From: an uncultured Eubacteriales bacterium
GTDB lineage: Bacteria; Acidobacteriota; Aminicenantia; Aminicenantales; UBA8522
NCBI GenBank assembly: GCA_964580435.1
Contig: CAZOKP010000003.1
Span: forward strand, 3,967-67,966
DNA length: 64,000 bases
Reading direction: 5' to 3'
Each line of letters opens with the position of its first letter. Position 1 is the first letter of the stretch. Below are positions 40,974-59,349 of the stretch, piece after piece. The notes beneath the pieces were generated by a model. It was not told where the DNA came from. It searched no databases and saw only the letters and a list, made by a program, of their open reading frames with translations. The position numbers were made by a program, and so were the translations under genes.

Positions 40974-41432
40974 GTGATCAAAGTTTCTACCAAAGGAAGA
41001 TATGGTCTCCGCTTAATGTTAAACCTGGCCCGCCATTATAACAGCGGTACAAAGGCAGTCATCCTGAGAAACGTGGCCGAAGAGGAGGAAATCTCCCTCC
41101 GCTATCTAGAGCAGATCATCATTCCTCTGAAGATCTACAAGCTTGTGAAAAGTATTCGCGGAGCCGGCGGCGGCTACACTCTGGCCCGGAAACCTTCAGA
41201 GATCAACCTCTGCGAAATTCTGGAAGCCCTGGAAGGGACGTGCGCCCTCGTCGACTGCATCGAGGACAAGGATTTTTGCGACCGTCTCCCCGGCTGCGCC
41301 GCCTACGAGGTCTGGAAAGAAGCCAGCCGGATCCTGAAAAACTATTTCGAAAAGGTCACCCTCCAGTACGTCCTGGATATCTCCGAAAAAAAGAAGCCCA
41401 AAGGCAGGGATAAAGGCCGAGTTCGGCGCTGA
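40974..41432 (+). CDS. Rrf2-family transcriptional regulator with Cys cluster (probable Fe-S/redox sensing)
   Basis: N-terminal wHTH (STKGRYGLRLMLNLA). It has the GTCALVDC-x6-C-x5-C cysteine pattern. GTG start with a good RBS. Confidence 0.8.
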   Translation: MIKVSTKGRYGLRLMLNLARHYNSGTKAVILRNVAEEEEISLRYLEQIIIPLKIYKLVKSIRGAGGGYTLARKPSEINLCEILEALEGTCALVDCIEDKDFCDRLPGCAAYEVWKEASRILKNYFEKVTLQYVLDISEKKKPKGRDKGRVRR

Positions 41433-41518
41433 TTCCCTGCTCATTTTTTTCCTGCAAAAGGGTCTTTTCCCCGTTTTGATTGCGGCGGCCCGCCGGGATA
41501 AAAAAGGTCACTTTTCTC

Positions 41519-41547
41519 TTGACATTCCCTGCCCTCTTCTGTATAAA
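41519..41547 (+). promoter_or_regulatory. Sigma70-like promoter (TTGACA-17-TATAAA) upstream of the multiheme cytochrome cluster
   Basis: Near-consensus -35 and -10 boxes, ~80 nt upstream of the proposed TTG start of the decaheme gene. Confidence 0.5.
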
Positions 41548-41626
41548 ATCTATCGAATTTATAGAACATATAAATTCTCTCAATAAAGAGACAAGATGGA
41601 CGAAGAATTCCTCAAGGAGGTTGGAG

Positions 41627-42487
41627 TTGCCAGCGACAATAAAAAGAAGGCGAAATAGAGTCTCCCTCACGACGTGCGCCCTCCTGGTTGTGGTTATTGC
41701 CGCCGTCGGGTTGGGGATAGCAGCCAGGCCGGCTCCTCAGGCAAAAGACGCCGAGACCTGCGGCACCTGCCACGAAGACCTGGTCAAGGCCTTTGCCTCC
41801 CGGCCTCATGCTGCTTTAGCCGGCAAGACCTGCACGGCCTGCCACGGCAGCGGAGAAAAACACATTGAAGAAGGGGGCAAAACCGGGATCTTTGCCTTTG
41901 CGGCCTCGGACCTGGTCAGCGAAAAAACCAACACGTGCCTGACCTGTCACGCCAAGGACAATCCCCGCTTCCTGACGAGCCCGCATGGAAAAGCTTCTCT
42001 CGACTGCACCACCTGCCACAGCGTTCACGGCGAGGAAGCCGCTTCTCCCCTGCTCAAGACCAAAGAGAACAAAGTCTGCGCCCGCTGCCATGAAGACATT
42101 TTTGCCCAGTTCCAGCTCAACGAACGGCACCGGCTTCAGGAAGGAATCCTGTCCTGCGCCACCTGCCACAACCCCCACGAACCTTCTGCAAGAACGATGC
42201 TGGGCGGGTTCAAACAGGAACAGTGCCTCAAATGCCACACCGACAAGGGCGGACCTTTCCTGTATGAGCATCAAGCCTCCCGCGTCGAGGGCTGCACTGC
42301 CTGCCATGAAGTCCATGGATCACCTAATCGGCATATGCTGACCCACCAGAGCGTCGCCGACCTCTGCTTCAGCTGCCACGCCGAAGCGCCGGCCTGGCAC
42401 GCCGACTTCAGTCCCGAAGGGACCAACTGCGTGAACTGTCATTCCGCCATCCATGGCTCGAACCTGGACAAGAGATTCCTGAAATAG
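41627..42487 (+). CDS. Periplasmic decaheme c-type cytochrome, MtrA/PioA/MtoA-like
   Basis: Ten CXXCH motifs in ~290 mature residues. The N-terminal signal/anchor follows the proposed TTG start, which has GGAGG 6 nt upstream. The track ORF starts at 41480. Size and haem count match MtrA-family electron conduits. A porin-like gene follows. Confidence 0.7.
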   Translation: MPATIKRRRNRVSLTTCALLVVVIAAVGLGIAARPAPQAKDAETCGTCHEDLVKAFASRPHAALAGKTCTACHGSGEKHIEEGGKTGIFAFAASDLVSEKTNTCLTCHAKDNPRFLTSPHGKASLDCTTCHSVHGEEAASPLLKTKENKVCARCHEDIFAQFQLNERHRLQEGILSCATCHNPHEPSARTMLGGFKQEQCLKCHTDKGGPFLYEHQASRVEGCTACHEVHGSPNRHMLTHQSVADLCFSCHAEAPAWHADFSPEGTNCVNCHSAIHGSNLDKRFLK

Positions 42488-42497
42488 GAGAAATAGG

Positions 42498-44363
42498 ATG
42501 AGTCGGGAAAAAACCATCGGAATGTTCTTGGGCGTGGCGTTTGTGTTCTCCCTCGCCCCTACCCTCGAGGCCCAGAGCAGCAACTTTTACGGCGATTTCC
42601 TGCTGGGATATCGATATGTGAACAAGAGCGGCCCCGGAGCCAACTACAAGTATAGAGAGGACTACAACCTCCGCAGCGGGGCTCGCCTGACGAACTTCAC
42701 TCTCAGCTTCTCGCCGGATAACGGGCTCAAAAAGTTCTTCGACCGGCTGGACATCCGGATGTACAACCTTGGCGGAGACCCCTATGAGAACATCACCGTG
42801 GCCATGCAGAAGTACGGCAAGTATCTGATCCAGTATGACCGGAACAAATCGACCTATTTCTATCACGACCTGAACCTGGGCGACGGCGGCATCCCTTACG
42901 ACCTGTACAGGTTTGATTTCGACCGGGTCAGGGATACGGGCCTGGCTAAAGTCTGGCTGACCGGTCAAGCCGACCTCTATCTGAGCTTTGACCGTTACAC
43001 CAAAAAGGGGGACAGCCGGTACCCCCGCGACATCGAAAGACTGGAATTCCAGATGACCGGGCCCATCCAGGAAGAATCCAAGGAAGCCGCTGTCGGTCTC
43101 GACCTCCACTTCAACCGCTACTCCTTTATTTTCGAAGAAAAATTCCTGAACTCCAAGATCGAAAATAGGACCTTCCTTCCCGGCTACCTCGACGGAGGCC
43201 CTAACGCTGAATTTCCCACGGCGCTTTATTATTACTTCCTGAATGAGCCCTACGAGATCAAGTCCAACACCAGTTCCTTCAGATTCAACGCCCGACCGAT
43301 CAGCCGGCTCTTCCTGAGCGGGTCGGCCCAACTCACCCAGCTCGACCTGAACCTGGATTATTCAGAGCGAGCTAAGGGGGTCAATTATCTCGACAGGTAT
43401 TTTCAATACGACATCACCGGCACTGGCAAATTCGAGCGCAACTTTCAGCTCTATGGCCTGGATGTCTCTTACAATCTCTTCGATAACCTCAGCATCGTCG
43501 GGGCCTTTCGCTATCACAACTTCGACCAGACCGGCTCTCTCGAGATAAGCGGCGAGACAGAATCCCAGGATTTCGGGTACAAAACCCTTGGAGTCGACGC
43601 CGGCGTCCAATACCAGTTCTCCCCGAAGTTGGCCATGACCCTCGGCTATCGCTATGAAGACCGGAATCTGGACAACCTGGAGACGGTCACTTTTGAATTC
43701 GACACGGTCAAGAACGGCGGTTTCGGGAACCTTAAATGGGACGTTTCCCGGGCCTTAAAGCTGACCGTTGATTACGAGCGCAGCCAGTACACAGACCCCT
43801 TTACGCTGATCTCCCCGACAGCTTTTGACAGGCTGAGGATAACGGCAAGATACCAGGCCAATAACCTGAGCATCTCGGGGTCCTATCTCTGGAACAACTC
43901 CAAGAGCGAGGTCTTCGAGGATATCTGGAGAGCATCCAAGAACCAGTTCAATCTGCGCTTGGGCTATCATGTCGACCGTTTCAACGCCTCCGGAGGATTC
44001 GCTTACATCCAGGCCAAACGTCAAGGCAACCGGACCGTGAGCTTTCCTCCCTGGTGGACGGGGCCGGGCGGGACTTTCCTTTGGGAGATTCTTTACGAGG
44101 GGAAATCCAGCCTGCTGGACGGCTTGCTCTCTTATGACCTAGACAAGAATTGGAAACTCGGCGGCTATGCCAACTATTATTCCAATACAGGTTCCTGGGA
44201 AACCAGACGGACTGTTCTCAAGGCCTTCGTTGAATATGCTTTTACGGCCGGATATGTGGCCCAGGTCGGCTACAGGTTCGTTGATTATAAAGAGATAAAA
44301 TTCGGCTACAGTGATTACAAAGCCAATATTGTCGAGTTCGCCTTTGGCTATCGCTGGAAATAA
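42498..44363 (+). CDS. Outer-membrane beta-barrel porin, MtrB/PioB/MtoB-like partner of the decaheme cytochrome
   Basis: Signal peptide (…APTLEA/QSS), 621 aa, pervasive alternating aromatic/hydrophilic beta-strand pattern. It ends in the aromatic C-terminus FAFGYRWK. Immediately 3-prime of the MtrA-like gene, as in known porin-cytochrome gene pairs. Confidence 0.6.
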   Translation: MSREKTIGMFLGVAFVFSLAPTLEAQSSNFYGDFLLGYRYVNKSGPGANYKYREDYNLRSGARLTNFTLSFSPDNGLKKFFDRLDIRMYNLGGDPYENITVAMQKYGKYLIQYDRNKSTYFYHDLNLGDGGIPYDLYRFDFDRVRDTGLAKVWLTGQADLYLSFDRYTKKGDSRYPRDIERLEFQMTGPIQEESKEAAVGLDLHFNRYSFIFEEKFLNSKIENRTFLPGYLDGGPNAEFPTALYYYFLNEPYEIKSNTSSFRFNARPISRLFLSGSAQLTQLDLNLDYSERAKGVNYLDRYFQYDITGTGKFERNFQLYGLDVSYNLFDNLSIVGAFRYHNFDQTGSLEISGETESQDFGYKTLGVDAGVQYQFSPKLAMTLGYRYEDRNLDNLETVTFEFDTVKNGGFGNLKWDVSRALKLTVDYERSQYTDPFTLISPTAFDRLRITARYQANNLSISGSYLWNNSKSEVFEDIWRASKNQFNLRLGYHVDRFNASGGFAYIQAKRQGNRTVSFPPWWTGPGGTFLWEILYEGKSSLLDGLLSYDLDKNWKLGGYANYYSNTGSWETRRTVLKAFVEYAFTAGYVAQVGYRFVDYKEIKFGYSDYKANIVEFAFGYRWK

Positions 44364-44381
44364 CACCTCGAGGAGGAGATC

Positions 44382-46703
44382 ATGTTCAAAAGACCATACC
44401 TCTTAGGTCTTCTGGCTGTCCTTTTGATTTCTTCATTCCTGCTGGCGAATTCAGGCAGCCACAAATTCAAAGCTCAATCCAAGGAAGACAAAAATCGAAG
44501 GCTCTGGGCCACCTCGGCCCACGCCGCCAAGGATGACGAGCCTTTCGTCCATTGGAATGACACAGGCTCGATCCCCAAAGAGTGCGCCAAATGCCACAGC
44601 ACGCCCGGCTTCCGTGATTATCTCGGCGTCGACGGCACGGCCGTGGATGTGGTAGAAAATAGCGTTCCTGTGGGCACAACGGTCGAGTGCGCCGCCTGCC
44701 ATTCCGACCCTGACAACGGGGTCGTCCATGACCGCACCTATGCCATCTTTCCTTCGGGCGTGAAGGTCGAAGGACTCGGCCCGGAAGCGATGTGCATGGA
44801 ATGTCACCAGGGAAGGGCTTCGACGAAATCCATCAACAGTTCAATCGCCGGCTCCGGCGTGACTTCAGATGACGACCCCAGCTCCAAGCTGAAGTTTATC
44901 AACGTCCACTACTTTGCCGCTGCCGCCACTCAGCTCGGGACAGTCGTCCAGGGAGGATATCAGTACGCTGGAAAATCGTACGACGCCCGGTTCGCCCATA
45001 TCCCCGGATACAACGCCTGCCAGGTCTGTCATAATCCTCACTCTCTCGAAGTCGACCTAGAAGCCTGCAATACCTGCCATACCGGCGTCAAGGACCCGAA
45101 AGACATCCGCTTTTACGGATCTTTGGTCGACTACGACGGCGACGGGAATATCACCGAAGGCATCTACTACGAGATCGAGACAATCAGGGAGAACCTGTAC
45201 AACAGCATGCGGGCTTACGCCAGGGATGTCGTTGGGAAACCGATCGCCTATGATGGAAATAGCTATCCCTATTTCTTCAATGATAAGAACGACAACGGAG
45301 TTGTTGATTCCGACGAAGCGGACCCCAGCAACGGATACAGCTCCTTTACCGCCCGACTTCTCAAGGCCGCCTACAATCTCCAAGTGTCCGTAAAAGATCC
45401 TTGCCAATATGTCCACAACGGAAAATACATCATCGAGCTCTTGTATGATTCGATCGAGGACCTCAATTCTTCCCGTGGCGCCGGAACAGCCAAGACCGCG
45501 GTTTCGAAACCCCGTCTTACAAGGCCTTTGCAGGCCGACCGCAGGATCAAAGCCGGCGGCCAAGATCGAATCTCTCTCTTGAGGAATGATGATATCCTCA
45601 CCGGGAACCAGGTGGAGTCGTTCGGGGATGACTATTTGCAATATGCGCCTGCCCCCGGCCACGGCCTTGTCCGGACTGACGAAGGCCATTTCGACGGTTC
45701 TGCCGAAGCCTGGAGACACTGGGATGAAGAGGGAGAGGTTCCGTCAAGCTGCGCCAAATGCCATAGCGCCGAAGGTCTCCCCTACTTGCTCGAGAACGGC
45801 AAGATCGACAAGGCCATGGATATTTCTAACGGCCTGCTCTGCATGACCTGCCACATCGTGCCACCCCAGACAAGGCCAGTCGGTCCGGTGAAATTTCCCT
45901 CCGGAGTGAGCGTGGACCTGGGCGACAGCTCCAACCTGTGTCTCAACTGCCATCAGGGAAGAGCTTCAAAATTCTCGGTTGACAAGAGCATCGCCGGCGG
46001 CCCGGGGCCATACGGCTTTACCAACATCCATTATTATGCAGCGGCGGCTTCCTTCTTCGGCTCCGAAGTCCATGGCGGATACGAATTCAGCGGCAAAACT
46101 TATGCCGGGCGCAATATCTACACCAACCACAGCGGACTTTTCACCGATTGTATCGAGTGTCATATGGGGACCAAGAGCTTCAACAGGAAGCACGACGACT
46201 CTGACGCCTTGTTCCACAACGTCCAGACGCCCAACCCCGCCGATTGTGCGCCCTGTCATGGACAGGACATCGCCCAGCCCCATCCCGGTGCTGACCCCGG
46301 CCAGTTCGAGTTCGAGGGGATTCGGCCGGCCCAGACTCCTGACTACGATGCCGACGGAAACAAGAACGAATCCCTGCAGGCTGAGATCAAAGGGCTCGAA
46401 AATGCGCTCTACGCCCAGATTCAGACGTATGGCTCGAATATCGGCGCACCGATTGTCTACAACGAAACAAGCTATCCTTATTTCTTCAAAGATACGAACG
46501 GGAACGGCATTGTGGACCCTGATGAGCTGGATCCCGGCAACGGGTACGAATTCAATGCGCCCATGCTTAAGGCCGCGTATAATTTTCAGATGAGCAAGAA
46601 AGAGCCGTGCGGCTATATCCACAATCCCCGTTATATCGCTGAATTGCTCGCCGATTCTATCGGAAGTCTTGGCGGAAATATGAAAAAGTACACTTGGCGG
46701 TAA
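44382..46703 (+). CDS. Secreted decaheme c-type cytochrome built from two duplicated pentaheme modules
   Basis: Signal peptide and ten CXXCH motifs. Two internally homologous halves each end in …SYPYFF(N/K)D.N.NG.VD.DE.DP.NGY…LKAAYN(L/F)Q.S.K.PC.Y.HN..YI.ELL.DS. No lipobox. Confidence 0.7.
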   Translation: MFKRPYLLGLLAVLLISSFLLANSGSHKFKAQSKEDKNRRLWATSAHAAKDDEPFVHWNDTGSIPKECAKCHSTPGFRDYLGVDGTAVDVVENSVPVGTTVECAACHSDPDNGVVHDRTYAIFPSGVKVEGLGPEAMCMECHQGRASTKSINSSIAGSGVTSDDDPSSKLKFINVHYFAAAATQLGTVVQGGYQYAGKSYDARFAHIPGYNACQVCHNPHSLEVDLEACNTCHTGVKDPKDIRFYGSLVDYDGDGNITEGIYYEIETIRENLYNSMRAYARDVVGKPIAYDGNSYPYFFNDKNDNGVVDSDEADPSNGYSSFTARLLKAAYNLQVSVKDPCQYVHNGKYIIELLYDSIEDLNSSRGAGTAKTAVSKPRLTRPLQADRRIKAGGQDRISLLRNDDILTGNQVESFGDDYLQYAPAPGHGLVRTDEGHFDGSAEAWRHWDEEGEVPSSCAKCHSAEGLPYLLENGKIDKAMDISNGLLCMTCHIVPPQTRPVGPVKFPSGVSVDLGDSSNLCLNCHQGRASKFSVDKSIAGGPGPYGFTNIHYYAAAASFFGSEVHGGYEFSGKTYAGRNIYTNHSGLFTDCIECHMGTKSFNRKHDDSDALFHNVQTPNPADCAPCHGQDIAQPHPGADPGQFEFEGIRPAQTPDYDADGNKNESLQAEIKGLENALYAQIQTYGSNIGAPIVYNETSYPYFFKDTNGNGIVDPDELDPGNGYEFNAPMLKAAYNFQMSKKEPCGYIHNPRYIAELLADSIGSLGGNMKKYTWR

Positions 46704-46719: not shown

Positions 46720-46749
46720 GGCGGCATCAAAAAATGCCGCCGTTTTTTT
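46720..46749 (+). terminator. Rho-independent terminator after the decaheme cytochrome gene
   Basis: GGCGGCAT-caaaaa-ATGCCGCC followed by GTTTTTTTA. Confidence 0.75.
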
Positions 46750-46758
46750 ACCATTTTT

Positions 46759-46840: not shown

Positions 46841-48076
46841 ATGAAGAAAGGATTTTTCCTGATCGCCTTGCTCAGCTTGCTTTTGCCTCCGGCTCTCCGC
46901 GGCCAGGAGTGCCTGGAATGTCATAAAAAGACTACGCCCAACATCGTCGGCGACTGGCTGGAAAGCAAGCACAGCAAAAATGACGTAACCTGTTCTATTT
47001 GCCACGGGGAAGAACACAAGACTGCTGCGGATTTTGCCAAAGCCAGGATCCCCACACCTGAAACGTGCGCTGCCTGTCACGAAGAACAGGTAAGCCAGTT
47101 CAAACGGGGCAAACACGCCTTGGCGTGGGCCGCCATGAAAGCCATGCCTACAGCCCATGCTCAGCCCGTCGCGATGATGGAGGGGATGAAGGGATGCGGC
47201 GGATGCCATAAGATCGGACTGAAAACCGAAGCGGAAATAGAAGAGCTCGATAAAGCCGGCGCTGGATTCGGTCGAGCCTCATGCGATGCCTGCCACACGC
47301 GGCATATTTTCTCCACCGCCGAAGCCCGGCAACCTCAAGCCTGCCAGACCTGTCACATGGGCTTCGATCATCCTCAATGGGAGATGTACTCCGCTTCCAA
47401 GCACGGCGTCCGCTTTCTCCTGAAACAAAACAAGACCCTCCCCGAGTCGGTTGCCGCGCCGACCTGCCAGACCTGCCATATGCAGGAGAAAAACCACGAA
47501 GTCCGGACCGCTTGGGGTTTTCTGGCCGTCCGGCTGCCCATGCCTGAGGACAAGCAATGGGCTGCAGATAGAGCAACCATCCTCCAGGCTCTCGGCGTTC
47601 TGGACCCTGCCGGTAACCCCACAGCAAGGCTCGATGTCGTCAAGGCAGCGGACGTCGCCCGTCTTAGTCAGGAAGCCTGGCAGAAAGAACGGGACAAAAT
47701 GATCGGCATCTGCAACCGTTGCCACAGCGTGAATTTTGCCAAAGCAGAGCTCGAAAAAGGCGACCAGATGATCAAAGAAGTGGACCATCTGATGGCGGAG
47801 GCCATCCTGACGGTCGCGTCTCTCTACAAAGACGGCGTTTTGCCGAAACCGGCGAACTACGCTTATCCGTTTCCCGATCTTCTGACCTTCCATGACGCGC
47901 CGACCGAAGTGGAGCAGAAGCTCTTCGTGATGTTTCTCGAACACCGGATGCGCGCCTTCCAGGGGACCTTCCACGCCAACCCGGACTATGCACTCTGGTA
48001 CGGTTGGAGCGAAATGAGGCGGTCGCTCACAGAGATCCAGACTCTCGCTGCGGCTAAGCGCAAAAACCAAACGTGA
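46841..48076 (+). CDS. Periplasmic octaheme c-type cytochrome
   Basis: Signal peptide and eight CXXCH motifs (CLECH, CSICH, CAACH, CGGCH, CDACH, CQTCH, CQTCH, CNRCH) in 411 aa. Confidence 0.7.
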   Translation: MKKGFFLIALLSLLLPPALRGQECLECHKKTTPNIVGDWLESKHSKNDVTCSICHGEEHKTAADFAKARIPTPETCAACHEEQVSQFKRGKHALAWAAMKAMPTAHAQPVAMMEGMKGCGGCHKIGLKTEAEIEELDKAGAGFGRASCDACHTRHIFSTAEARQPQACQTCHMGFDHPQWEMYSASKHGVRFLLKQNKTLPESVAAPTCQTCHMQEKNHEVRTAWGFLAVRLPMPEDKQWAADRATILQALGVLDPAGNPTARLDVVKAADVARLSQEAWQKERDKMIGICNRCHSVNFAKAELEKGDQMIKEVDHLMAEAILTVASLYKDGVLPKPANYAYPFPDLLTFHDAPTEVEQKLFVMFLEHRMRAFQGTFHANPDYALWYGWSEMRRSLTEIQTLAAAKRKNQT

Positions 48077-48145
48077 CCAAGACGGGACGGTGTTTAACCA
48101 CCGCTAAAATTAGTGGCCATTGAAAGGACGATGTAAGGATCAGGA

Positions 48146-49501
48146 ATGAAGGCCCTGCTCAATTTTTTCACCTCGGTCCGGGTGGCCATCACCCTGCTGA
48201 TCATCCTCATCTGCGCCTCGATCATAGGAACGCTCATACCTCAAGGGAGAAGCGCGCAGGAATACCTCGTCCGCTACGGCCAGCTCGGCACCCTGCTGGA
48301 GCGGCTCCAGCTCACCAGGCTTTATCATTCCTTCTGGTTTATTGCACTGCTCGCGCTATTTTCCCTGAACATCATCGTCTGCACGCTCGAAAGGCTCTTT
48401 CCCAAATTCCGGCGGACCTTCCGGCCGAAGTTGGAGACCGAACCCAAGAACATTCTCGCTTTGAAAATCAGGGATAAATTCAAAGTCGGCCTGACAGTTG
48501 CCGAAACCAGGGAGATGGTCAAGAAGGAACTCACCCGCCGCCGCTACCGGCTTAGGGAAGCTGAGACCGAAACCAAGCACTGCTTTACCGCCCGGAAGAG
48601 GGACCTGGGCTGGTTCGGGTCCGATATCGTCCACTTGGGCATCCTCGTGATCCTAGCCGGAGGAATCGCCAGCGGACTCGGTGGTTACCGCAAAGACCTC
48701 ACCTTTAGTGAAGGCCAGACTCTTTCCGTTCCCGGGGCGAATTTCTCTGTCCGACTGGACAAGTTCGTCACGGAATACTATCCTAACGGAAGTGTCAAGG
48801 ACTGGAAAAGCCTCCTCACCGTGACTGAGGACGGAAAGCCCCTCTTCCAAAAAGCAGTCGAAGTCAATTATCCCCTAAATCATCAAGGCTACGTTTTTTA
48901 TCAAAGCGGCTACGGTTGGGATTGGGAGCATCCCTCGCTCGAAGTCTGGGTGAAGAAAAAGCAGAACCCGACCTATCTCAAAAAGGTCTGGCTGAAGGTC
49001 GGCGAGAAAACGGCCCTGGAAGGTGAATCCCTTGTGCTCAACGCGCTCCAGTTCATCCCTGATTTCGTCCTCGACGAAAAAAACCAGCCGGCCGCCCGCT
49101 CGTTGGAGCCAAACAATCCGGCGGCTTTCATCGAAGGCTGGGAGGGGCCCGAAAAGGTGTTCTCCGGCTGGATTTTCGCCAAGTTCCCCGATTTTTCACG
49201 CCTCCACTCGGGGGCCAAGGAACCGGATATTTCCCTCGAACTCAAGGACGTCCGGGCGCCCAATTACTCGGTCATCCACGTGGCCAAGGACCCGGGCGTA
49301 TCGCTCATCTGGAGCGGCTGCGTCCTGCTGATGGCGGGGCTCGTCCTGGCCTTTTACTGGCCGACGAGAGAATTGAAGATTATTCTGGAGGACAGCCAGG
49401 GGAAGACAGGCGTCACAGCCGGCGGAATTTCTATTAAGAGCCGGGAGGTCTTTCAAACGGAATTTGAAAGCATCATCAACTCTCTAAGGAAACGCAAATG
49501 A
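48146..49501 (+). CDS. resB: Cytochrome c biogenesis protein ResB/CcsB (System II)
   Basis: N-terminal TM segments (…VRVAITLLIILICASIIGTL…). A large periplasmic domain and a C-terminal TM helix follow. 451 aa. Overlaps ccsA by 4 nt. Confidence 0.8.
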   Translation: MKALLNFFTSVRVAITLLIILICASIIGTLIPQGRSAQEYLVRYGQLGTLLERLQLTRLYHSFWFIALLALFSLNIIVCTLERLFPKFRRTFRPKLETEPKNILALKIRDKFKVGLTVAETREMVKKELTRRRYRLREAETETKHCFTARKRDLGWFGSDIVHLGILVILAGGIASGLGGYRKDLTFSEGQTLSVPGANFSVRLDKFVTEYYPNGSVKDWKSLLTVTEDGKPLFQKAVEVNYPLNHQGYVFYQSGYGWDWEHPSLEVWVKKKQNPTYLKKVWLKVGEKTALEGESLVLNALQFIPDFVLDEKNQPAARSLEPNNPAAFIEGWEGPEKVFSGWIFAKFPDFSRLHSGAKEPDISLELKDVRAPNYSVIHVAKDPGVSLIWSGCVLLMAGLVLAFYWPTRELKIILEDSQGKTGVTAGGISIKSREVFQTEFESIINSLRKRK

Positions 49502-50316
49502 CTGAATCCACTTTTTTCCTGCTTGCTTTCATCCTTTATGCTTTGGCCGCTGCCTTCTACTTTTCCTATCTTTTCTCCAAAAAGGAAAACCGGGCCACGA
49601 TCGGTTTCGCCGTTGCCCTGGCGGGTCTGCTCATCCATACGCTGGCCTTAGTTTTTAGGACGGTCGAAAGCGGCCATGCGCCCTTCACCAACATGTACGA
49701 GTCCCTCTCCTTTCTGGCCTGGGCTTCTATCCTGGCCTTCATCATCATCGAGGCAAAATACAAGGTCAGGAGGCCGGGGGCTTACCTGCTGCTTATTGTG
49801 ATCGCCCTCATGGCCCTGGCGTCTTCGCCGCTCATGCCGAAAGAAGCCACTCCTCTTGTTCCGGCGCTGCAGAGTTACTGGCTCTGGCTGCATGTTTCCG
49901 TTACGCTTATCGGCGAGGCCTTTTTTGCCATCGCCTTCATCACCAGCATCATGTACCTTGCGGCCGACGCCAAAGAACGAAAAGGGAAAGCAGCGAAATC
50001 GGGGCTCACCGCGGAGAGACTTGACTCCATCAGCTACCGCACCATCGCGATCGGTTTTCCGCTCTTCACCTTGGGAGGGCTCGTCTTCGGCATGGTCTGG
50101 GCTTATAAGGCCTGGGGAACCTACTGGAGCTGGGACCCCAAGGAGGTTTGGAGCCTGATCACCTGGTTCGTCTTTGCCCTGTATCTCCACACCCGGATCG
50201 TCATGGGCTGGAAGGGCCGGCGTTCGGCCGCCATCGCCATCATCGGATTTCTCGCTGCCCTCTTCACTTACTTTGGCGTGAATTACCTGCTGGCGGGGCT
50301 GCACAGTTATGCCTGA
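49498..50316 (+). CDS. ccsA: Cytochrome c biogenesis protein CcsA/ResC (System II haem exporter-lyase)
   Basis: Polytopic membrane protein with a Trp-rich WGxxWxWD-type region (WAYKAWGTYWSWDPKEVW), 272 aa. Confidence 0.8.
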   Translation: MTESTFFLLAFILYALAAAFYFSYLFSKKENRATIGFAVALAGLLIHTLALVFRTVESGHAPFTNMYESLSFLAWASILAFIIIEAKYKVRRPGAYLLLIVIALMALASSPLMPKEATPLVPALQSYWLWLHVSVTLIGEAFFAIAFITSIMYLAADAKERKGKAAKSGLTAERLDSISYRTIAIGFPLFTLGGLVFGMVWAYKAWGTYWSWDPKEVWSLITWFVFALYLHTRIVMGWKGRRSAAIAIIGFLAALFTYFGVNYLLAGLHSYA

Positions 50317-50409
50317 GCGCAGCCGCGGCGGCAAATAGAAAGAAGACTGCAAATATTTCCGCAGAACAGACAGGCCGAACAGTCGGACCTTCGAGGAAAG
50401 CGATATAAG

Positions 50410-52422
50410 ATGAAGATGCGGATAACCAAGAAAAGGACCCTTATCTCCCTTGCCGTTCTTGGCTTTCTCCTGCTTCTTTTCATCGCCGCAGCCGAAATCA
50501 CGTCCCAGTCCAGGTTCTGCTCCACCTGCCACTACATGAAACCCTTTTACCAGAGCTGGAAAACCTCCTCCCATGGCAACGTCCAGTGTAGTGTCTGTCA
50601 TTATCCTCCCGGATTGAGGTCCTTCTTCAGGGCGAAGGTGGAAGGATTGATGCAGCTGGGCCGGTATTGGACCAAGCTCTACCTCAAGTCCAGACCCTGG
50701 GCGGAGATTCCGGATGAAAGCTGTCTGCGTCAGGGATGCCACGACACCAGGCTTCTCGAGGGCCGAGTGAAATTCAAGGAGGTCATCTTCGACCACAAGA
50801 TCCACCTCGAGGACTTGAAAAGAGGAAAGAAACTTCGCTGCACGAGCTGCCACTCCCAGATCGTCCAGGGAGAGCATATTACTGTCACCGAGACTACGTG
50901 TTTTATCTGCCATTTTAAAAAGAGCGAACATTACCCCCAGATCGGCCAGTGCTCCCACTGTCACATCCAGCAAGATCTGGTCTCGAAACAAACCTCCCGG
51001 TTCAACCATACGGTCGTTTTCGAAAAAAAATTCAGCTGCGACAAATGTCACAGCCAGGTCGTCGTGGGCGACGGTGCCGTCCCCCGCGAGAACTGTTATA
51101 AATGTCATTTTGAGAAAGAGAGGCTGGATCAATATTCCGACACGGATTTAATCCATTCCACCCATATCACAGCCCATAAGATCGAGTGTAACCAATGCCA
51201 TTTGCAGATTCAGCACAAAATTGTCAAAGACATCGAGACCATCGCCGATTGCCGGACCTGCCACACGGGCTTCCATCAGGCCCAGAAGATTCTGTACACC
51301 GGCGAAGGCGGAAAAGGCATTGCCCATGCTCTGCCCAATGTCATGCTGGAAAAAGGGCTGAGCTGCAAGGGCTGCCACATGTTCCACGAGGAGGCGGGCG
51401 GAAAGTTGGTCAAGAGCGAGACCTCGATCTCGAAGGAGCAGGCCTGCGAATCCTGTCACGGAGCAGGATTCGCTCGAGTTCTCCGGTACTGGCAGGTCTC
51501 GACCGAGAAAAGGCTGAGCCAGATCAGGAGGATCTATCAAAGATCTTCCCAGGAAGTCGGGCTGAGCAAGAGCCCTAATCGGGAAAGGGCCAAGCCATTG
51601 CTTGACGATGCGGCCTTTAACATCGACGTCGTCGAGAGAGGCAAAAGCGTCCATAATATGGCCTACTCACAAGAGCTTCTTCAGGCCGCCATTGCCTATA
51701 TGGAGGAAGCCCTGCAGCTCGTCGGTTCTTCTTATAAGCCAGAAAAATTCCTGCCGGAAACAAAGGACATCCCCTCGCAATGCTCCCAGTGCCACGCCGG
51801 GATCGAAGAGATCAATGGCCGGGTCTTCGGGCTGTCCTTTCCCCACAAAACGCATGTCGTCGGCCAGAAAATGCAGTGTTCGACCTGCCATTCCAATGCG
51901 AAAAAACACGGTGAATTCATCGGCTCCAAAAAACAGTGCGCCACTTGTCATCATCAGGATATCAAGAAAGACTGCGGAAGCTGCCATATCCTCCAAAAGA
52001 CCCTCTATGTGGGAGGGACGTTAGATGGCTGGGAAGTCCCCAAGGATATGATGGCCGAGGCGAACGTCGGCTGTGCCGATTGCCACGCCCTGGACAAAGG
52101 TCAGATCCGCCCGGCCGACAGCTCCACGTGCATGAATTGCCATGAAGAGAGCTACACAAAGACGTTTGCGGAATGGCAGGATGCATATAAAAAGCAGCGG
52201 GATTCTCTCCTCACCAGCCTTGAAGTAAAGAGAAGGCTTAAGCTGCCCGAGGGAGACCGAGCCAAACTTGCCGAGGTCGAGCAGATGCTCAGAAAACTCG
52301 AGGACGACGGAAGCTCCTCCGTTCACAACTCCCAGTTCATCGAAGACCTGTTGACAAAACTTGAACTCCGGATAAAATCTATCCAGGAACAGCCGGCGCA
52401 TGAAGAGACGGACATTCGTTAA
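50410..52422 (+). CDS. Membrane-anchored multiheme cytochrome with NapC/NirT/NrfH-like N-terminus (17 CXXCH + 1 CX4CH)
   Basis: N-terminal TM helix followed by CSTCHYMKPFYQSWKTSSHGNVQCSVCH, as in NrfH/NapC quinol dehydrogenases. Fifteen further CXXCH motifs and one CLRQGCH follow. C-terminal coiled-coil-like tail. 670 aa. Confidence 0.7.
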   Translation: MKMRITKKRTLISLAVLGFLLLLFIAAAEITSQSRFCSTCHYMKPFYQSWKTSSHGNVQCSVCHYPPGLRSFFRAKVEGLMQLGRYWTKLYLKSRPWAEIPDESCLRQGCHDTRLLEGRVKFKEVIFDHKIHLEDLKRGKKLRCTSCHSQIVQGEHITVTETTCFICHFKKSEHYPQIGQCSHCHIQQDLVSKQTSRFNHTVVFEKKFSCDKCHSQVVVGDGAVPRENCYKCHFEKERLDQYSDTDLIHSTHITAHKIECNQCHLQIQHKIVKDIETIADCRTCHTGFHQAQKILYTGEGGKGIAHALPNVMLEKGLSCKGCHMFHEEAGGKLVKSETSISKEQACESCHGAGFARVLRYWQVSTEKRLSQIRRIYQRSSQEVGLSKSPNRERAKPLLDDAAFNIDVVERGKSVHNMAYSQELLQAAIAYMEEALQLVGSSYKPEKFLPETKDIPSQCSQCHAGIEEINGRVFGLSFPHKTHVVGQKMQCSTCHSNAKKHGEFIGSKKQCATCHHQDIKKDCGSCHILQKTLYVGGTLDGWEVPKDMMAEANVGCADCHALDKGQIRPADSSTCMNCHEESYTKTFAEWQDAYKKQRDSLLTSLEVKRRLKLPEGDRAKLAEVEQMLRKLEDDGSSSVHNSQFIEDLLTKLELRIKSIQEQPAHEETDIR

Positions 52423-52825
52423 CTTCTTCTTGGGAGGCTCTCTCGTCGGGACTCTAAGCTCGCTTCTTTATCCCATCATCCGCTATCTCATCCCCCCGCG
52501 TCAGGCTGAGGCGGTGGCAAAGAAAATTGCCGCCGCCAAAGTAGGAGAGTTAGCTCCCAACTCCGCGAAGCTGTTCAAATTCGGGTCCTCTCCCGCCCTC
52601 TTGATTAATACCGCCGAGGGCCAGCTCCGGGCTTTTTCCGCCGTGTGCACTCACCTAACCTGCACGGTCAGCTATGAGAGCGACACCAGCACGCTTTATT
52701 GTCCCTGTCATAACGGCCGGTTCGACCTCGCCGGGAATGTCATATCCGGGCCGCCGCCCCGCCCATTAGAGACTTATGAAATCGAGGTGGTCAGCGGCGA
52801 TATCCTTGTCTCTAAGAAAGCTTAG
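52400..52825 (+). CDS. Rieske [2Fe-2S] iron-sulfur protein (bc-complex type)
   Basis: N-terminal TM/Tat-like segment and Rieske boxes CTHLTC…CPCHNG. The start overlaps the preceding cytochrome gene by 23 nt. Confidence 0.8.
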   Translation: MKRRTFVNFFLGGSLVGTLSSLLYPIIRYLIPPRQAEAVAKKIAAAKVGELAPNSAKLFKFGSSPALLINTAEGQLRAFSAVCTHLTCTVSYESDTSTLYCPCHNGRFDLAGNVISGPPPRPLETYEIEVVSGDILVSKKA

Positions 52826-52826
52826 A

Positions 52827-53900
52827 ATGAGCCAGCTCATTAGGAACGCGGTCGCCTATCTCGAATCCAGATTCCAGTTTTCCGCCCTGGCCGAATTCGG
52901 CAAGAAAAAGAAAGTCCCGGAGCATAAATATTCTTTCTGGTATTACTTTGGCGGGCTGTGTCTTTTTCTTTTCTTTGTGCAGGTCGTTACGGGCATCCTC
53001 CTCCTTTTGTACTACACTCCCTCAGTCGATGCGGCTCATGAAAGCATTCAGTTCATCATGAGCCAGGTCAAATTCGGCTGGCTCATTCGTTCTGTCCACA
53101 GCTGGACGGCCAACATCCTGGTCGGAGCCATTTTCATCCACATGTTCAGCGCGTTCTTTCTCAAGGCCTACCGGCCGCCGCGGGATCTCACCTGGATCAG
53201 TGGATTCTTTCTCCTCATCTTCTTCCTGGCCTTCGGTTTCAGCGGCTATCTTCTTCCCTGGAATGAACTCTCGTTTTTCGCCACCCGGGTGGGAACGGAT
53301 ATCGCCGGCGTTATCCCTTACATTGGCAAAGCCCTCAAAACGTTCATTCTCGGAGGCCCGGAGGTTTCCGGCGCCACCCTGAGCCGGTTCTTCTGGCTTC
53401 ACGTGGCTGTTCTCCCGGCGATTGCGTTCGTCGTCCTGGGGATCCATATCTTCCTGGTCCAGGTCCTGGGGATGAGCAAGCCGATCGGGATCTCCGAGAG
53501 GAAGGAGATCTCTTTCTTCCCGACGTTCATCCTCAAGGACGCCCTGGTCTGGCTCCTCGTCTTGACTGCCATCGGCGTCCTCTGCGTCTTTTTCCCTTGG
53601 GAAGTGGGCCAAAAGGCCGACCCTTTCGCAGCGACGCCGATCGGCATCAAGCCCGAATGGTATTTCACCTTCATGTTCACGACACTCAAGCTCATCCCCC
53701 CTCACATTTTCTCCCTGGAAGGTGAGGTTCTGGCCATCCTGGGATTCATGCTGGGCGGATTGCTCTGGATGCTCGTTCCCTATCTTGACCGGAGGGCCGG
53801 CCGGGAGACGAAGAGTCCTGTTTTTTCAGGGGCAGGTTTTCTTATTCTGCTCTATATCATTGTCATGACGGCTCTGACCTACCTTGCACCCCGCATATAA
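52827..53900 (+). CDS. Cytochrome b of a bc-type complex (b6/subunit IV-like, fused)
   Basis: Polytopic with conserved haem-ligand His context (…SVHSWTANILVGAIFIHM…FGFSGYLLPWN…). The ATG at 52827 is 2 nt after the Rieske stop. The track ORF starts further upstream at 52776. Confidence 0.8.
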   Translation: MSQLIRNAVAYLESRFQFSALAEFGKKKKVPEHKYSFWYYFGGLCLFLFFVQVVTGILLLLYYTPSVDAAHESIQFIMSQVKFGWLIRSVHSWTANILVGAIFIHMFSAFFLKAYRPPRDLTWISGFFLLIFFLAFGFSGYLLPWNELSFFATRVGTDIAGVIPYIGKALKTFILGGPEVSGATLSRFFWLHVAVLPAIAFVVLGIHIFLVQVLGMSKPIGISERKEISFFPTFILKDALVWLLVLTAIGVLCVFFPWEVGQKADPFAATPIGIKPEWYFTFMFTTLKLIPPHIFSLEGEVLAILGFMLGGLLWMLVPYLDRRAGRETKSPVFSGAGFLILLYIIVMTALTYLAPRI

Positions 53901-53919
53901 CTGAGGTCAAAATATTACA

Positions 53920-55206
53920 TTGAAAGTGAAAGAGAACAAAGAACGGGACAAAAACCGGATGAGATCGAAGCTCGTCTCTGTTGTCTCATTTTTGTTCCTC
54001 CTGGCCCTTCCTCTCTCGCTCTTCGGCCAAAAAAATTCCTGCCTGGAATGCCACAAGGAGATGGATGATCAGAACCTGCGCGCTCCTGTGGATGGATTCG
54101 CGACGGATGTTCATCGGCAATTCGGTCTGGGCTGCCAGGACTGCCATGGAGGCAACCCCCTGCAGGATGACGTGGGACTGGCCAAGGACAAGTCCTTCAA
54201 GGGGGCGCCCGGGAAAGCCAAGGTGCCGGAATTCTGCGGCTCCTGCCATTCCAATTCCGAGTACATGAGGCGCTTCAATCCAAATGTACGCGTGGACCAG
54301 CTTCAGACCTACTGGACGAGCAAGCACGGCGAGCTCCTGAGAAAAGGCGACACGAATGTCGCCGTCTGCACGGACTGCCATGGAATTCATGGGATTCAAG
54401 CCTCCAATTTCCCCAAATCCTCGACCTTCGCCTGGAACATCCCCCAGACCTGCGGCCGTTGCCATTCCAGCCAGGATGTGATGAAGGCCTACGGCATTCC
54501 CGTCAACCAAGTCGACGATTATAAACACAGCGTCCATGCGACCGCCCTTTTCGATAAAAAGGACCTCTCGGCGCCGGTCTGCAATGACTGCCATGGAAAT
54601 CACGGCGCTGCACCCCCTCAAGTTACGTCAATCGCTTTTGTCTGCCGGCAGTGCCATCCGAGCGCCGGAGACCTCTTTACTCAAAGCCCTCACAAGGCTG
54701 CTTTCGACGGACTGGGGATTTCGGAATGCGAAGCCTGCCACGGCAATCACAAGATTCTCGCCCCCACCGACGAGATGCTCGCCGGAGGACGCAACGACGT
54801 CTGCAGCCAGTGCCATGACACCGGGACCAAGCCTTATGAGACCGGGCTCGAGATGAAGCGGAAGCTCTCGGGCTATGTGGCCACATTTCAAACCGCCGAA
54901 GACCTTCTCGAAAGAGCCGAAAAACAGGGCGTCGAGGTCAGCGATCCTCGGTTCAAGCTCCAGGAGGCCTCCACGGCCTTGATCCTCGTCCGGAACCTGA
55001 CCCACGGCCTTTCCCTCACGGACATGGAAGCGAAGCTCGCTGAAGGGGACAACGTCATCGCCGAGGTCAAAGCGCTCGGCGGCGCCGCTTTGAAGGAAGC
55101 GAAATTCCGCAAGACAGGCCTTGTCATCACCACCGTCTTCATCTTCCTTCTCGCCCTGGCCCTTTATTTCAAGATCCGCGAGCTCCAGTCGCGACCCAAG
55201 GCCTAG
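53920..55206 (+). CDS. Nonaheme c-type cytochrome with C-terminal transmembrane anchor
   Basis: Nine CXXCH motifs and a C-terminal hydrophobic helix (GLVITTVFIFLLALALYF). The real start may be the internal Met near 53950, which is followed by a signal peptide. It follows the Rieske/cyt b genes directly. Confidence 0.7.
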   Translation: MKVKENKERDKNRMRSKLVSVVSFLFLLALPLSLFGQKNSCLECHKEMDDQNLRAPVDGFATDVHRQFGLGCQDCHGGNPLQDDVGLAKDKSFKGAPGKAKVPEFCGSCHSNSEYMRRFNPNVRVDQLQTYWTSKHGELLRKGDTNVAVCTDCHGIHGIQASNFPKSSTFAWNIPQTCGRCHSSQDVMKAYGIPVNQVDDYKHSVHATALFDKKDLSAPVCNDCHGNHGAAPPQVTSIAFVCRQCHPSAGDLFTQSPHKAAFDGLGISECEACHGNHKILAPTDEMLAGGRNDVCSQCHDTGTKPYETGLEMKRKLSGYVATFQTAEDLLERAEKQGVEVSDPRFKLQEASTALILVRNLTHGLSLTDMEAKLAEGDNVIAEVKALGGAALKEAKFRKTGLVITTVFIFLLALALYFKIRELQSRPKA

Positions 55207-55447
55207 AAACCCTGTCCTTCTCCCCAAAAAACGGGATCTGCGAATTGACAGCGAACTATTCCTCTTCAGAAAAAATATAAGAAGGGGTGGCGCGGTGCGT
55301 TCCCGAAGCGGCCGAGCGAATGGGGCGGGTGGGGGGGTCTTTAGCGAGGACGTGCGGGAACGCACCGGGACAGGCCCCCTTCGAGACACCTTTTATTATT
55401 ATTTCTATCGGTTACCTAAAAACTATCGCTTTTGTAGGAAATGGATA

Positions 55448-55476
55448 TTGACAATTTTCCGGGACTTCTCTAAAAT
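55448..55476 (+). promoter_or_regulatory. Sigma70 consensus-like promoter (TTGACA-17-TAAAAT)
   Basis: Seen in the 313-nt gap before the tetraheme cytochrome gene. It probably heads the 55520-59349 operon. Confidence 0.5.
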
Positions 55477-55519
55477 GGGGTTTCTTTTTGGAACAATTCA
55501 TGATCCCCAGGGAGGAACG

Positions 55520-56041
55520 ATGAAAAAGATCATTGTGCTTATCGTCATCATAGTTGCGATTTTGCTCATCAATCTTTTGGGCCAGAACTTCACCTATGTG
55601 GGATCGGCCAAGTGTGCGATCTGCCACAAGACGGAAACACAGGGCCAGCAGTATCCGATCTGGCAGAAGTCCAAGCATTCCATGTCCTTCGCCGCGCTCA
55701 GCTCTCCTGAGGCTGCTCCAAAAGCCCAGGCCGCCGGAGTGCAGAACCCGGCGGAAAGCCCCCAGTGTCTCAAATGCCATGCACCCCTCTTCGAGAAGGC
55801 CGCCGAACTCAAGGCCGAGGGCGTCACCTGCGAGGTCTGCCACGGCCCGGGAAGCGAATACAAAAAACTCACCATCATGAAAGACAAAGCCCTGGCCCAG
55901 AAGAACGGCCTGGTCCTCTATGAATCTTCGGATGCCGCTAAAAAACACTGCCTGACCTGCCATGAGAATGCTCACGGCACGAGCTTCGATTACGCGGCAG
56001 CCTGGGAAAAGATCAAACACGACAAACCGGCCGCAAAATAG
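55520..56041 (+). CDS. Small tetraheme c-type cytochrome (periplasmic, 174 aa)
   Basis: ATG with GGAGG 4 nt upstream, signal/anchor MKKIIVLIVIIVAILLINLLG, four CXXCH motifs. The track ORF 55121..56041 is over-extended at the 5-prime end. Confidence 0.7.
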   Translation: MKKIIVLIVIIVAILLINLLGQNFTYVGSAKCAICHKTETQGQQYPIWQKSKHSMSFAALSSPEAAPKAQAAGVQNPAESPQCLKCHAPLFEKAAELKAEGVTCEVCHGPGSEYKKLTIMKDKALAQKNGLVLYESSDAAKKHCLTCHENAHGTSFDYAAAWEKIKHDKPAAK

Positions 56042-56050
56042 ACCGCATTT

Positions 56051-57331: not shown

Positions 57332-57335
57332 CGCC

Positions 57336-58580: not shown

Positions 58581-59349
58581 TTCTCCCCTTGTCCGCGACG
58601 ACGAGATCTTCCTGCGGATGAATCTCGCCGAACGGATCCAGCACTATCTCCTCATCGCCACGTTCTTTCTGCTCATGGTCACGGGGATTCCCCTTTTCTT
58701 CTACGAATTCAAGGCCTTCAAGTGGTTCTTCCCGACAGAGCAGGTTTTCTATATCCGGGGGATCATCCACAGGATTGCCGCGGTCGTTTTGATCATAAAT
58801 CTCATTTGGCACCTCTTTTACGCGACTCTGACGGCCCGGGGCCGGAATAACCTCAAGGTCATGATCCCCAAATTCCGCGACGGCAAAGACGCCTTTGAAC
58901 TTTTCTGGTACAACGTCGGGTTAACCCGCTTCCTCTACAGGCTGGGGTTCTTTCAGAAATTCTTCGAAACCCACCCCTACTGGCTTTTCCAGAACCCGCC
59001 CCTTTTCGGGCGCTATAATTTTATCGAGAAGTTCGAATACTGGGCCGTGGGCTGGGGCTCGGTCGTGATGATCATCAGCGGCTTCTTCATGTGGAATGTG
59101 GAGCTTTCGCTCCGCTTCTTCCCCCTCTGGGTCCATGACATCCTGGTCATGGTCCACGGCTACGAAGCCCTGCTGGCCTTTCTGGCGGTCATCATTTGGC
59201 ACATGTACAATGTCCATCTCAACCCCGAGGTCTTCCCCATGAGCAAAATCTGGCTGAACGGCAAAATCACGGGGAAAGAGCTCCGGCTGCTCCATCCTCT
59301 CGAATACCAGAAGATTGTCGAGGAACGGAAGAAAAGCCTCCGCCCGTAA
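58573..59349 (+). CDS. Dihaem b-type cytochrome, membrane subunit (FdnI/HydC/cytochrome b561-like, PF01292-type)
   Basis: Four to five TM helices with His pairs in characteristic positions (RIQHYLL…, IIHRIAAV…, HDILVMVHGYEA…, WHMYNVH). It is the last gene of the cytochrome operon. Confidence 0.6.
   Translation: MASSPLVRDDEIFLRMNLAERIQHYLLIATFFLLMVTGIPLFFYEFKAFKWFFPTEQVFYIRGIIHRIAAVVLIINLIWHLFYATLTARGRNNLKVMIPKFRDGKDAFELFWYNVGLTRFLYRLGFFQKFFETHPYWLFQNPPLFGRYNFIEKFEYWAVGWGSVVMIISGFFMWNVELSLRFFPLWVHDILVMVHGYEALLAFLAVIIWHMYNVHLNPEVFPMSKIWLNGKITGKELRLLHPLEYQKIVEERKKSLRP

Follow-up and report, generated by a model that had tools for sequence, protein, structure and literature searches.

Introduction

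To our knowledge, nearly all outer-surface cytochromes described from diderm bacteria belong to the MtrC/OmcA and Geobacter Omc families, and surface reductases with the NrfA fold (OcwA and OmhA) have been thought a Gram-positive solution. We describe here a decahaem c-type cytochrome gene found on 64,000 nucleotides (nt) of contig CAZOKP010000003.1 (positions 3,967 to 67,966, forward strand; assembly GCA_964580435.1), deposited as an uncultured Eubacteriales bacterium and placed by GTDB in the Aminicenantia (Acidobacteriota). This whole stretch is termed the window, and coordinates refer to it unless another locus is named. The protein has two tandem modules of predicted NrfA type, and we lean towards reading it as an outward-facing surface cytochrome, the third part of a porin-cytochrome conduit in Aminicenantes.

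MtrC, OmcA and UndA have four domains, two Greek-key beta-barrels alternating with two pentahaem domains, an arrangement not found in the window protein. They also carry a lipobox Cys, whereas the window protein has none and some of its orthologues have a lipobox-like Cys. The likeness (drawn with 6R2Q, which we take to be the Shewanella baltica MtrCAB complex) lies in ten haems in two pentahaem units, a size of approximately 75-85 kDa, and MtrA-type and barrel partners. Because of this common ten-haem build, size and partnership, the analogy suggests that the two are probably equivalent in function. Geobacter porin-cytochrome (Pcc/Ext) clusters follow the same logic, with a periplasmic cytochrome, a barrel and an outer cytochrome.

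The closest structures are OcwA of Thermincola potens (PDB 6I5B) and OmhA of Carboxydothermus ferrireducens (PDB 6QVM), both terminal reductases of Gram-positive cell surfaces. They share with the window protein an NrfA-like pentahaem module with a three-helix bundle, but they carry, N-terminal to it, a tetrahaem module resembling cytochrome c554, which brings them to 9 or 11 haems (the architecture of OcwA is described in PMC6703420); this module is missing from the decahaem, where the second half copies the first. OcwA and OmhA also have five-coordinate, solvent-exposed haems with a His-His motif over the distal face; the decahaem has no such pair, and its conserved His-Tyr (residues 176-177 and 550-551) is a candidate for that place.

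A preprint (10.64898/2026.05.27.727921) reports ‘OwcA-like’ cytochromes with 8-13 haems in porin-multihaem clusters of peat Acidobacteriota and Verrucomicrobiota, and the general idea of NrfA/OcwA-like cytochromes in porin clusters is thus already emerging. Those clusters come from Terriglobia and Verrucomicrobiota, as against Aminicenantes here. Two further candidates were set aside as relatives: Ardenticatena ARMA_0580, a surface cytochrome that is a 430-residue heptahaem, and the Thermoanaerobaculia clusters of PMC8528874, which have NHL-repeat proteins and a different layout. Gallionellaceae MtoC appears in PMC10734462 by name alone, in a figure legend and in the methods, which allows no comparison, and the extracellular decahaem discussed there belongs to the OmcA/MtrC family. 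In the literature we found no paper on this family, on a tandem NrfA-fold decahaem or on its calcium-type loops; the tandem duplication, the loops, the strict Aminicenantes triad and the contrast between monoderm and diderm hosts appear to be new.

The cytochrome and its two modules

The gene and the parts of its product, with lengths in amino acids (aa), are as follows.

44382..46703, + strand: decahaem cytochrome gene, 773 aa, ATG start, two tandem pentahaem modules
44382..44456, + strand: putative signal peptide, residues 1-25, read from the sequence, with orthologue N-termini compared
44493..45476, + strand: module 1, residues 38-365, five CxxCH, C-terminal three-helix bundle, predicted NrfA/OcwA fold
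45477..45653, + strand: inter-module linker, residues 366-424, predicted disordered
45654..46700, + strand: module 2, residues 425-773, five CxxCH, paralogue of module 1 by self-alignment and invariant columns

A GGAGGAG ribosome-binding site stands just 5′ of the open reading frame (ORF). The original prediction, made from the DNA letters and a list of ORFs, had described a 773-aa protein with ten haem motifs and no lipobox. The ORF is present, with exactly ten CxxCH (residues 68, 103, 138, 213 and 229, then 457, 487, 520, 590 and 622), and a motif scan of the 773 residues found none of the variant motifs CxxCK or Cx3-4CH. The N-terminus, MFKRP followed by 17 hydrophobic residues and ANS/G, looks like a Sec signal peptide. 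A lipobox is indeed lacking, because the first Cys comes only at residue 68. The linker is longer in the clade of the window protein than in orthologues of 706-720 aa.

Self-alignment of residues 1-400 with 401-773 gave 38% identity over 343 columns (BLASTP, E = 1e-66), which puts the duplication of the two halves far beyond chance. The predicted pair of duplicated pentahaem modules is thereby upheld, as is the long co-linear motif said to be common to them (SYPYFFNDKNDNGVVDSDEADPSNGY / SYPYFFKDTNGNGIVDPDELDPGNGY and LKAAYNLQVSVKDPCQYVHNGKYIIELLYDS / LKAAYNFQMSKKEPCGYIHNPRYIAELLADS). Each module has five invariant His beyond those of CxxCH, at 47, 176, 206, 220 and 345 in module 1 and at 436, 550, 583, 612 and 747 in module 2.

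The AlphaFold2 (AF2) model of the whole protein is mediocre (local confidence, pLDDT, 65; predicted template-modelling score, pTM, 0.46), with residues 367-450 at pLDDT below 50; Foldseek matched it best to OcwA and then to NrfA. Module 1 was then modelled from an alignment of 19 sequences (A2: both halves plus 17 single-module relatives), and this model is confident (pLDDT 89.3, pTM 0.90). Examples of NrfA are 1QDB, 6V0A and E. coli b4070. Profile comparison with E. coli NrfA placed haem 1 of the module (CAKCH) on CWSCK and haem 2 on CADCH, with a probability of 94%. In a profile search of the PDB the C-terminal AAYNxQ...HNxxY helices fell on AQWRWD...HAPEE of NrfA, a stretch below significance, and the module profile had weak matches only, to MtrA, NrfA and nonahaem cytochromes; the whole decahaem sequence matched nothing in the PDB at E <= 1. 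On these models, each half is best described as an NrfA-type pentahaem module with the three-helix bundle of the superfamily. Soares et al. (PMC9250108) call the corresponding part the ‘C-terminal module’, and NrfA-like haem cores recur in uncharacterised cytochromes (PMC11492766).

Pfam and NCBIfam gave generic multihaem matches only: no model spans the whole module, the C-terminal ~130 residues are uncovered, and no family model beyond generic cytochrome c domains exceeds its curated cut-off. PF22113, which models domains II/IV of MtrC/MtrF, barely reached its cut-off of 30, with 30.1 bits, and spanned only residues 61-147 (87 residues). Membership of the MtrC/OmcA family was considered and rejected: TIGR03507 is not among the matches at E <= 0.01, there are no barrel domains, and MtrC, OmcA and UndA are not among the structural matches of the decahaem models. 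The original prediction of an architecture unlike that of MtrC/OmcA agrees with all three results.

A conserved three-gene unit

The decahaem gene follows two genes on the same strand and is followed by a hairpin.

41480..42487, + strand: MtrA/DmsE-type decahaem cytochrome, ten CxxCH, presumed periplasm-to-outer-membrane wire
42498..44363, + strand: predicted outer-membrane beta-barrel, 621 aa, with signal peptide; PF13505 (OMP_b-brl) 31.4 bits, cut-off 28.7
46720..46751, + strand: intrinsic-terminator-like hairpin, 8-bp stem with 6 G-C pairs, then a T run; 17 nt after the decahaem stop

The gaps are 10 nt between the mtrA-like and barrel genes and 18 nt between the barrel and decahaem genes, and the hairpin would close a three-gene unit with the decahaem as its last gene. 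The mtrA-like protein matches PDB 6r2q chain A over residues 19-259 (phmmer, E 7.6e-29) and scores 184.5 bits with TIGR03508, just under the cut-off of 192.2. Its start is ambiguous: the longest ORF runs from a TTG at 41480 (335 aa), and gene callers begin at 41690 (265 aa). The 265-aa call cuts into the hydrophobic signal region, while a start just before KRRRNRVSLTTCALLVVV would give a normal signal peptide. The table title of 6r2q chain A (333 aa) reads ‘cystathionine beta-synthase’; the aligned sequence is rich in CxxCH, which fits MtrA, and the title seems to be an annotation error.

More than 4,900 proteins among the candidates scored are related to the decahaem at E <= 0.001, and in a representative library at 50% identity there are 1,358 clusters of relatives at the same threshold. 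All are unnamed or ‘hypothetical protein’, and named records are mostly Candidatus Aminicenantes metagenome-assembled genomes. The best 150 representatives include 70 with one module (37 of them five-haem), 72 with two modules (50 ten-haem) and one with three (15 haems).

A scan of one genome per species gave 494 relatives, of which the best 80 loci were examined; synteny was counted in the 61 genome loci whose upstream flank reaches 2.9 kb or more. In 50 of these 61 loci the mtrA-like and barrel genes lie directly upstream, and the other 11 are ten Chloroflexota loci and one truncated copy. The search for homologues beside mtrAB-like pairs, proposed with the original prediction, therefore finds the triad intact in every Aminicenantes-type locus (50/50). 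The titles of most of these 50 read Aminicenantes or ‘uncultured Eubacteriales’; the second name is probably unreliable. The converse was examined from barrel homologues on metagenome contigs (46-86% identity), counting for each side the loci with enough flanking sequence there: the decahaem gene is directly downstream in 76/76, and the mtrA-like gene directly upstream in 61/61. The triad also occurs alone, apart from Rieske/cytochrome b genes (L004 and several other loci). Complete Aminicenantes genomes with the triad include CP070750.1 and OY970261.1. The original prediction had proposed a distinct family partnering an MtrAB-like conduit. An MtrA homologue, strict synteny and an unnamed family speak for this, and the MtrB-like part of the claim is left short, as the barrel matches no MtrB/PioB model.

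Two loci with atypical surroundings may be recorded here. On the Aminicenantes chromosome CP070825.1 (L067, 8001-9605) there is a shortened decahaem copy of ~508 aa with six CxxCH, having no mtrA-like or barrel gene upstream and still having ResB, CcsA, NapC-like, Rieske and cytochrome b genes downstream; decay or rearrangement of the locus may explain this. A longer relative (P0084, 1067 aa; L006 10001-13204) shows Paired_CXXCH matches and no accompanying barrel or MtrA-like gene, and among the genes around it are those for molybdopterin oxidoreductase/NrfD-type complexes and for other multihaem cytochromes.

The Chloroflexota orthologues (44-47% identity) have no MtrA-like or barrel genes. 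Their canonical lipoboxes (LAAC, LGAC and the like) lead into linkers of ~40-60 residues that are rich in Pro/Thr/Glu. In one of them (L087) NapC-like, Rieske and cytochrome b genes (2343-7392) directly precede the decahaem orthologue, in the same NapC-Rieske-b order as in the window. Chloroflexota are regarded as monoderm (PMC7399161, PMC5808234). A lipobox-like Cys also occurs in several Aminicenantes orthologues.

Other relatives are fusions. P0121 and P0134 are joined to three to five Big_2 Ig-like domains, typical of surface proteins. In P0127 the two modules are fused directly to a cytochrome b561 membrane domain, which would hold both at the outer face of the cytoplasmic membrane. Among P0126, P0207, P0239 and P0258 a pentahaem module is fused to a Ser/Thr kinase, a methyl-accepting chemotaxis protein or an AAA-ATPase/TPR protein. 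Together with the b561 fusion, these suggest that the module may also serve as an extracytoplasmic redox-sensing or quinol-linked unit. Contexts of single-module relatives vary, one adjoining a multihaem cytochrome and a cytochrome b, and they say little about the location of the window protein. One single-module gene (P0222, L089 6401-9092) is divergent from a gene for a Ferric_reduct/FAD/NAD-binding (NOX/FRE-like) membrane protein, a pairing that hints at an NAD(P)H-driven route to such a haem module.

Proposed location and electron path

The most economical reading of these patterns is that the two-module cytochrome is an electron-output device outside the cytoplasmic membrane, lipid-tethered on a long linker in the monoderm Chloroflexota and always accompanied by the MtrA-plus-barrel adaptor in the diderm Aminicenantes. 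For the window protein we infer a place at the cell surface, and we consider it somewhat favoured that it is a functional counterpart of MtrC or OmcB on the OcwA/NrfA fold. OcwA and OmhA are precedents for NrfA-fold cytochromes that serve as cell-surface terminal reductases (PMC6703420, PMC9250108). In the proposed path, the Rieske/cytochrome b and NapC-type cytochromes of the downstream genes would draw electrons from the quinol pool. The electrons would then traverse the periplasm and the MtrA-like decahaem, itself presumed to thread the 621-aa barrel. The MtrA-like wire would hand them to the tandem decahaem at the surface, whose two NrfA-type five-haem chains would deliver them to acceptors that are insoluble or macromolecular, for example oxides of Fe(III)/Mn(IV), humic matter or partner cells. 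The outward direction of flow is the presumed one, and the chain could also run in reverse.

Several points weigh against a surface location. MtrC and OmcB have a lipid anchor and the window protein has none; the barrel candidate matches no MtrB_PioB model in Pfam/NCBIfam and no sequence in the PDB; and the relative placement of the two modules is unsettled in the AF2 model (pTM 0.46, linker pLDDT below 50). The b561 fusion in P0127 implies that the unit can function while held against the cytoplasmic membrane, on its outer face. The gene order mtrA-like, porin and third gene has precedents in which the third product is periplasmic, namely PioC (pioABC) and MtoD (mto cluster). PMC10734462 gives the names of the mto genes, and conduits of the MtoAB/PioAB type are held to be functional with no surface cytochrome (PMC7005843). 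For every member of the family, moreover, localisation is a prediction, and the direction of electron flow is a presumption.

Much of this would also suit a periplasmic relay or capacitor, which would collect electrons from the Rieske/cytochrome b and NapC-type complex and feed the MtrA-like wire, the exposed end of the latter being the terminal site as in MtoAB/PioAB. We regard this as a less likely account, to be taken seriously: besides the missing lipobox, the b561 fusion of the two-module unit, the periplasmic carriers encoded after the porin gene in pioABC and mtoAB-mtoD and the MtrAB-only systems held functional (PMC7005843), it gains from the Chloroflexota gene that lies directly beside Rieske/cytochrome b genes (L087). 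A relay fits poorly, however, with a barrel family that is never without the decahaem in 76/76 metagenome loci, with a triad that is often apart from bc-type genes, and with other periplasmic cytochromes encoded nearby that could do the same work. Known periplasmic partners are also small, at 9-12 kDa against 83 kDa for the decahaem, and there are orthologues with Ig-domain fusions or long surface-type linkers.

Calcium-type loops

Each module contains two Asp/Asn-rich loops, listed here in order along the protein.

45129..45146, + strand: DxDxDG motif DYDGDG, residues 250-255, directly before the first long helix of module 1
45282..45317, + strand: EF-hand-like loop DKNDNGVVDSDE, residues 301-312, after a beta-hairpin; fits the 12-residue EF-hand loop (regular expression)
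46341..46358, + strand: DxDxDG motif DYDADG, residues 654-659, module 2
46491..46529, + strand: EF-hand loop DTNGNGIVDPDEL, residues 704-716, fits the full PROSITE pattern PS00018; residues 704-715 fit the 12-residue EF-hand loop

The resemblance to EF-hand calcium sites that had been read from the sequence holds at the level of pattern: beyond the PS00018 match, one or more 12-residue EF-loop matches arose in only 1.5% of 20,000 composition-preserving shuffles. D301, N303, N305, G306, D309 and E312 are invariant in 26 orthologues (59-84% identity). In the model of module 1, loop 301-312 is preceded by a beta-strand and lacks two flanking helices, and it is therefore EF-hand-like and no canonical EF-hand. 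The DxDxDG motif is kept in most single-module relatives, while the EF-hand-like loop is missing from some (P0231, P0269), so the fold can do without it. All four loops are putative calcium sites, and they are plausible structural stabilisers of exposed loops on an extracytoplasmic protein.

These features admit a more specific proposal, that one polypeptide mimics the NrfA homodimer and is an ancient cross-phylum output device. The two modules, stabilised by four calcium loops, would have their three-helix bundles packed and form a continuous ten-haem path, with an OcwA-like open haem at each end as docking or catalytic site; the device would be lipid-tethered in monoderm Chloroflexota and fitted with the MtrA-plus-barrel adaptor in diderm Aminicenantes. 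This fuller picture is speculative, and we hold it as tentative and rather unlikely in its entirety.

Comparison with nitrite reductase

NrfA shares with each module the pentahaem fold and its long C-terminal helices. It differs in being a homodimer, where the decahaem has two modules on one chain, and the calcium-type loops of the decahaem lie in the helical domain, away from the active site. The active-site haem of NrfA is bound by CxxCK with a Lys ligand, while haem 1 of the decahaem is CAKCH in both modules (residues 68 and 457). A few true NrfA enzymes use CxxCH, and a missing CxxCK is not decisive by itself.

Further residues were mapped by eye on the E. coli sequence, without structural superposition. 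After haem 3 the decahaem has an invariant CHQGR in place of CHVEYY, which in NrfA supplies the calcium ligand Glu215 and the catalytic Tyr216. There is no conserved Arg 16 residues before haem 1 to match NrfA Arg106, and the NrfA calcium site (Glu215/Lys261/Gln263) has no counterpart. At the position of the catalytic His264 the decahaem has His176/His550, in the motif N-x-H-Y. The window protein does not match PF02335 (Cytochrom_C552) in Pfam; this model matches five of the 19 aligned sequences at E <= 0.1 (best 4.1e-10), among them P0222, whose 16.3 bits fall short of the cut-off of 24.1. The cluster contains no nrfH or nrfBCD genes that could serve as partners. Because CxxCK is missing, CHQGR replaces CHVEYY and Arg106 has no counterpart, the decahaem is probably not a nitrite reductase. 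Assignment to a known periplasmic enzyme family had been named beforehand as the result that would tell against an extracellular cytochrome; what we find is unnamed relatives and no NrfA catalytic signature.

Four of the five extra His of each module match by position the distal ligands of NrfA haems 2-5; His206 stands six residues before the haem-4 Cys, exactly as NrfA His275 does. The fifth, His176/His550, could either ligate haem 1, making all haems bis-His, or line an open pocket of the kind at OcwA haem 5. We had considered deciding haem 1 ligation by counting His and dropped this, since OcwA has two open haems despite enough His for full bis-His ligation, and reduces nitrite slowly (PMC6703420).

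If haem 1 were five-coordinate, with a pocket lined by His176/Tyr177 (His550/Tyr551), the protein might be a catalytic enzyme that turns over nitrite, nitric oxide (NO), hydroxylamine or a sulfur oxyanion, possibly in Rrf2-controlled detoxification. The NrfA/ONR fold, the alignment of haem 1 with the NrfA active-site haem and the by-eye placement of His176 on the catalytic His264 would be expected of such an enzyme. OcwA, with its open haems, reduces nitrite (PMC6703420), and all members of the superfamily reduce nitrite or NO in vitro (PMC9250108). The next gene downstream encodes an octahaem of the hydroxylamine oxidoreductase (HAO) family, and Rrf2 regulators include the NO sensor NsrR. We nevertheless judge it quite improbable, and of the alternatives weighed here the one to which we give least credence. 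The protein has no CxxCK, no counterpart of Arg106, Tyr216 or the Glu215 calcium site, and no PF02335 match; five CxxCH and five further invariant His per module fit ligation that is bis-His throughout; and soluble substrates that diffuse into the periplasm need no MtrA-plus-barrel conduit.

Neighbouring genes and direction of flow

The genes on either side of the three-gene unit are listed below.

36122-40656, - strand: indolepyruvate:ferredoxin oxidoreductase subunits and an ADP-forming acetyl-CoA synthetase-like protein, directly upstream
40890-40918: promoter-like site
40974..41432, + strand: Rrf2-family regulator (PF02082, E 1.9e-33), usually just upstream of the triad
46841-48076, + strand: HAO-family octahaem, 411 aa; best PDB match 6h5l_A, E 4.8e-34
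48146-50316, + strand: ResB and CcsA haem-attachment genes (system II)
50410-52422, + strand: NapC/NirT-type cytochrome, 670 aa, membrane-anchored, 17 CxxCH plus one Cx4CH
52400-52825, + strand: Rieske protein
52776-53900, + strand: cytochrome b
53920-58580, + strand: four further multihaem cytochromes
58573-59349, + strand: cytochrome b561

From 41480 to 59349 these genes and the triad make up a same-strand island of 18 kb, with 78 CxxCH in eight c-type cytochromes including the mtrA-like and decahaem proteins. The cytochromes encoded downstream (46841..59349) are likely quinol-oxidising and periplasmic feeders, and the island looks like a complete quinol-to-outside electron path. The octahaem, which follows the triad in many related loci, is shorter than HAO-type enzymes (411 aa against 500-580 aa); its best match is described as ‘similar to hydroxylamine oxidoreductase’, and the next matches are HAO and hydrazine dehydrogenase. 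Homologues of the Rrf2 regulator lie upstream of the triad in many related loci. The window copy has a Cys-rich C-x5-C-x6-C-x5-C stretch (GTCALVDCIEDKDFCDRLPGC), which suggests an Fe-S cluster sensor of the IscR/NsrR/RirA type.

The upstream genes at 36122-40656 fit an amino-acid-fermenting anaerobe that would be helped by an external electron sink. Whatever its location, the same complex could work in the opposite sense, with Fe(II) minerals, cathodes or partner cells as electron donors and the quinone pool or periplasmic reductases as recipients. Flow through Mtr/Mto conduits can go either way, and its direction is not readable from sequence (PMC10734462), and FeGenie flagged iron-oxidation potential in one Aminicenantes genome (PMC7005843). 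Uptake nevertheless seems improbable here, given that enzymes of anaerobic fermentation (indolepyruvate:ferredoxin oxidoreductase and ADP-forming acetyl-CoA synthetase) are encoded close by and that the annotated parts of the window, which covers a partial genome only, showed neither a terminal oxidase nor a nitrate reductase.

Significance

In Aminicenantes the predicted NrfA/OcwA fold, tandemly duplicated, accompanies an MtrA-plus-barrel pair as its constant third member. If the decahaem does face outward there, the gene would be a marker that current iron-cycling annotation has apparently missed, because the Pfam and NCBIfam models that exceed their cut-offs on it are those of generic cytochrome c domains. 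The family would offer a natural experiment on how one electron-output module is fitted to monoderm and diderm envelopes.

Anoxic sediments and aquifers harbour abundant Aminicenantes, which are generally regarded as fermenters. If the surface reading is true, the conduit would give them a respiratory outlet to minerals, humics or partner cells; and if the more tentative homodimer-mimic proposal also holds, they would be widespread mineral or humic respirers.

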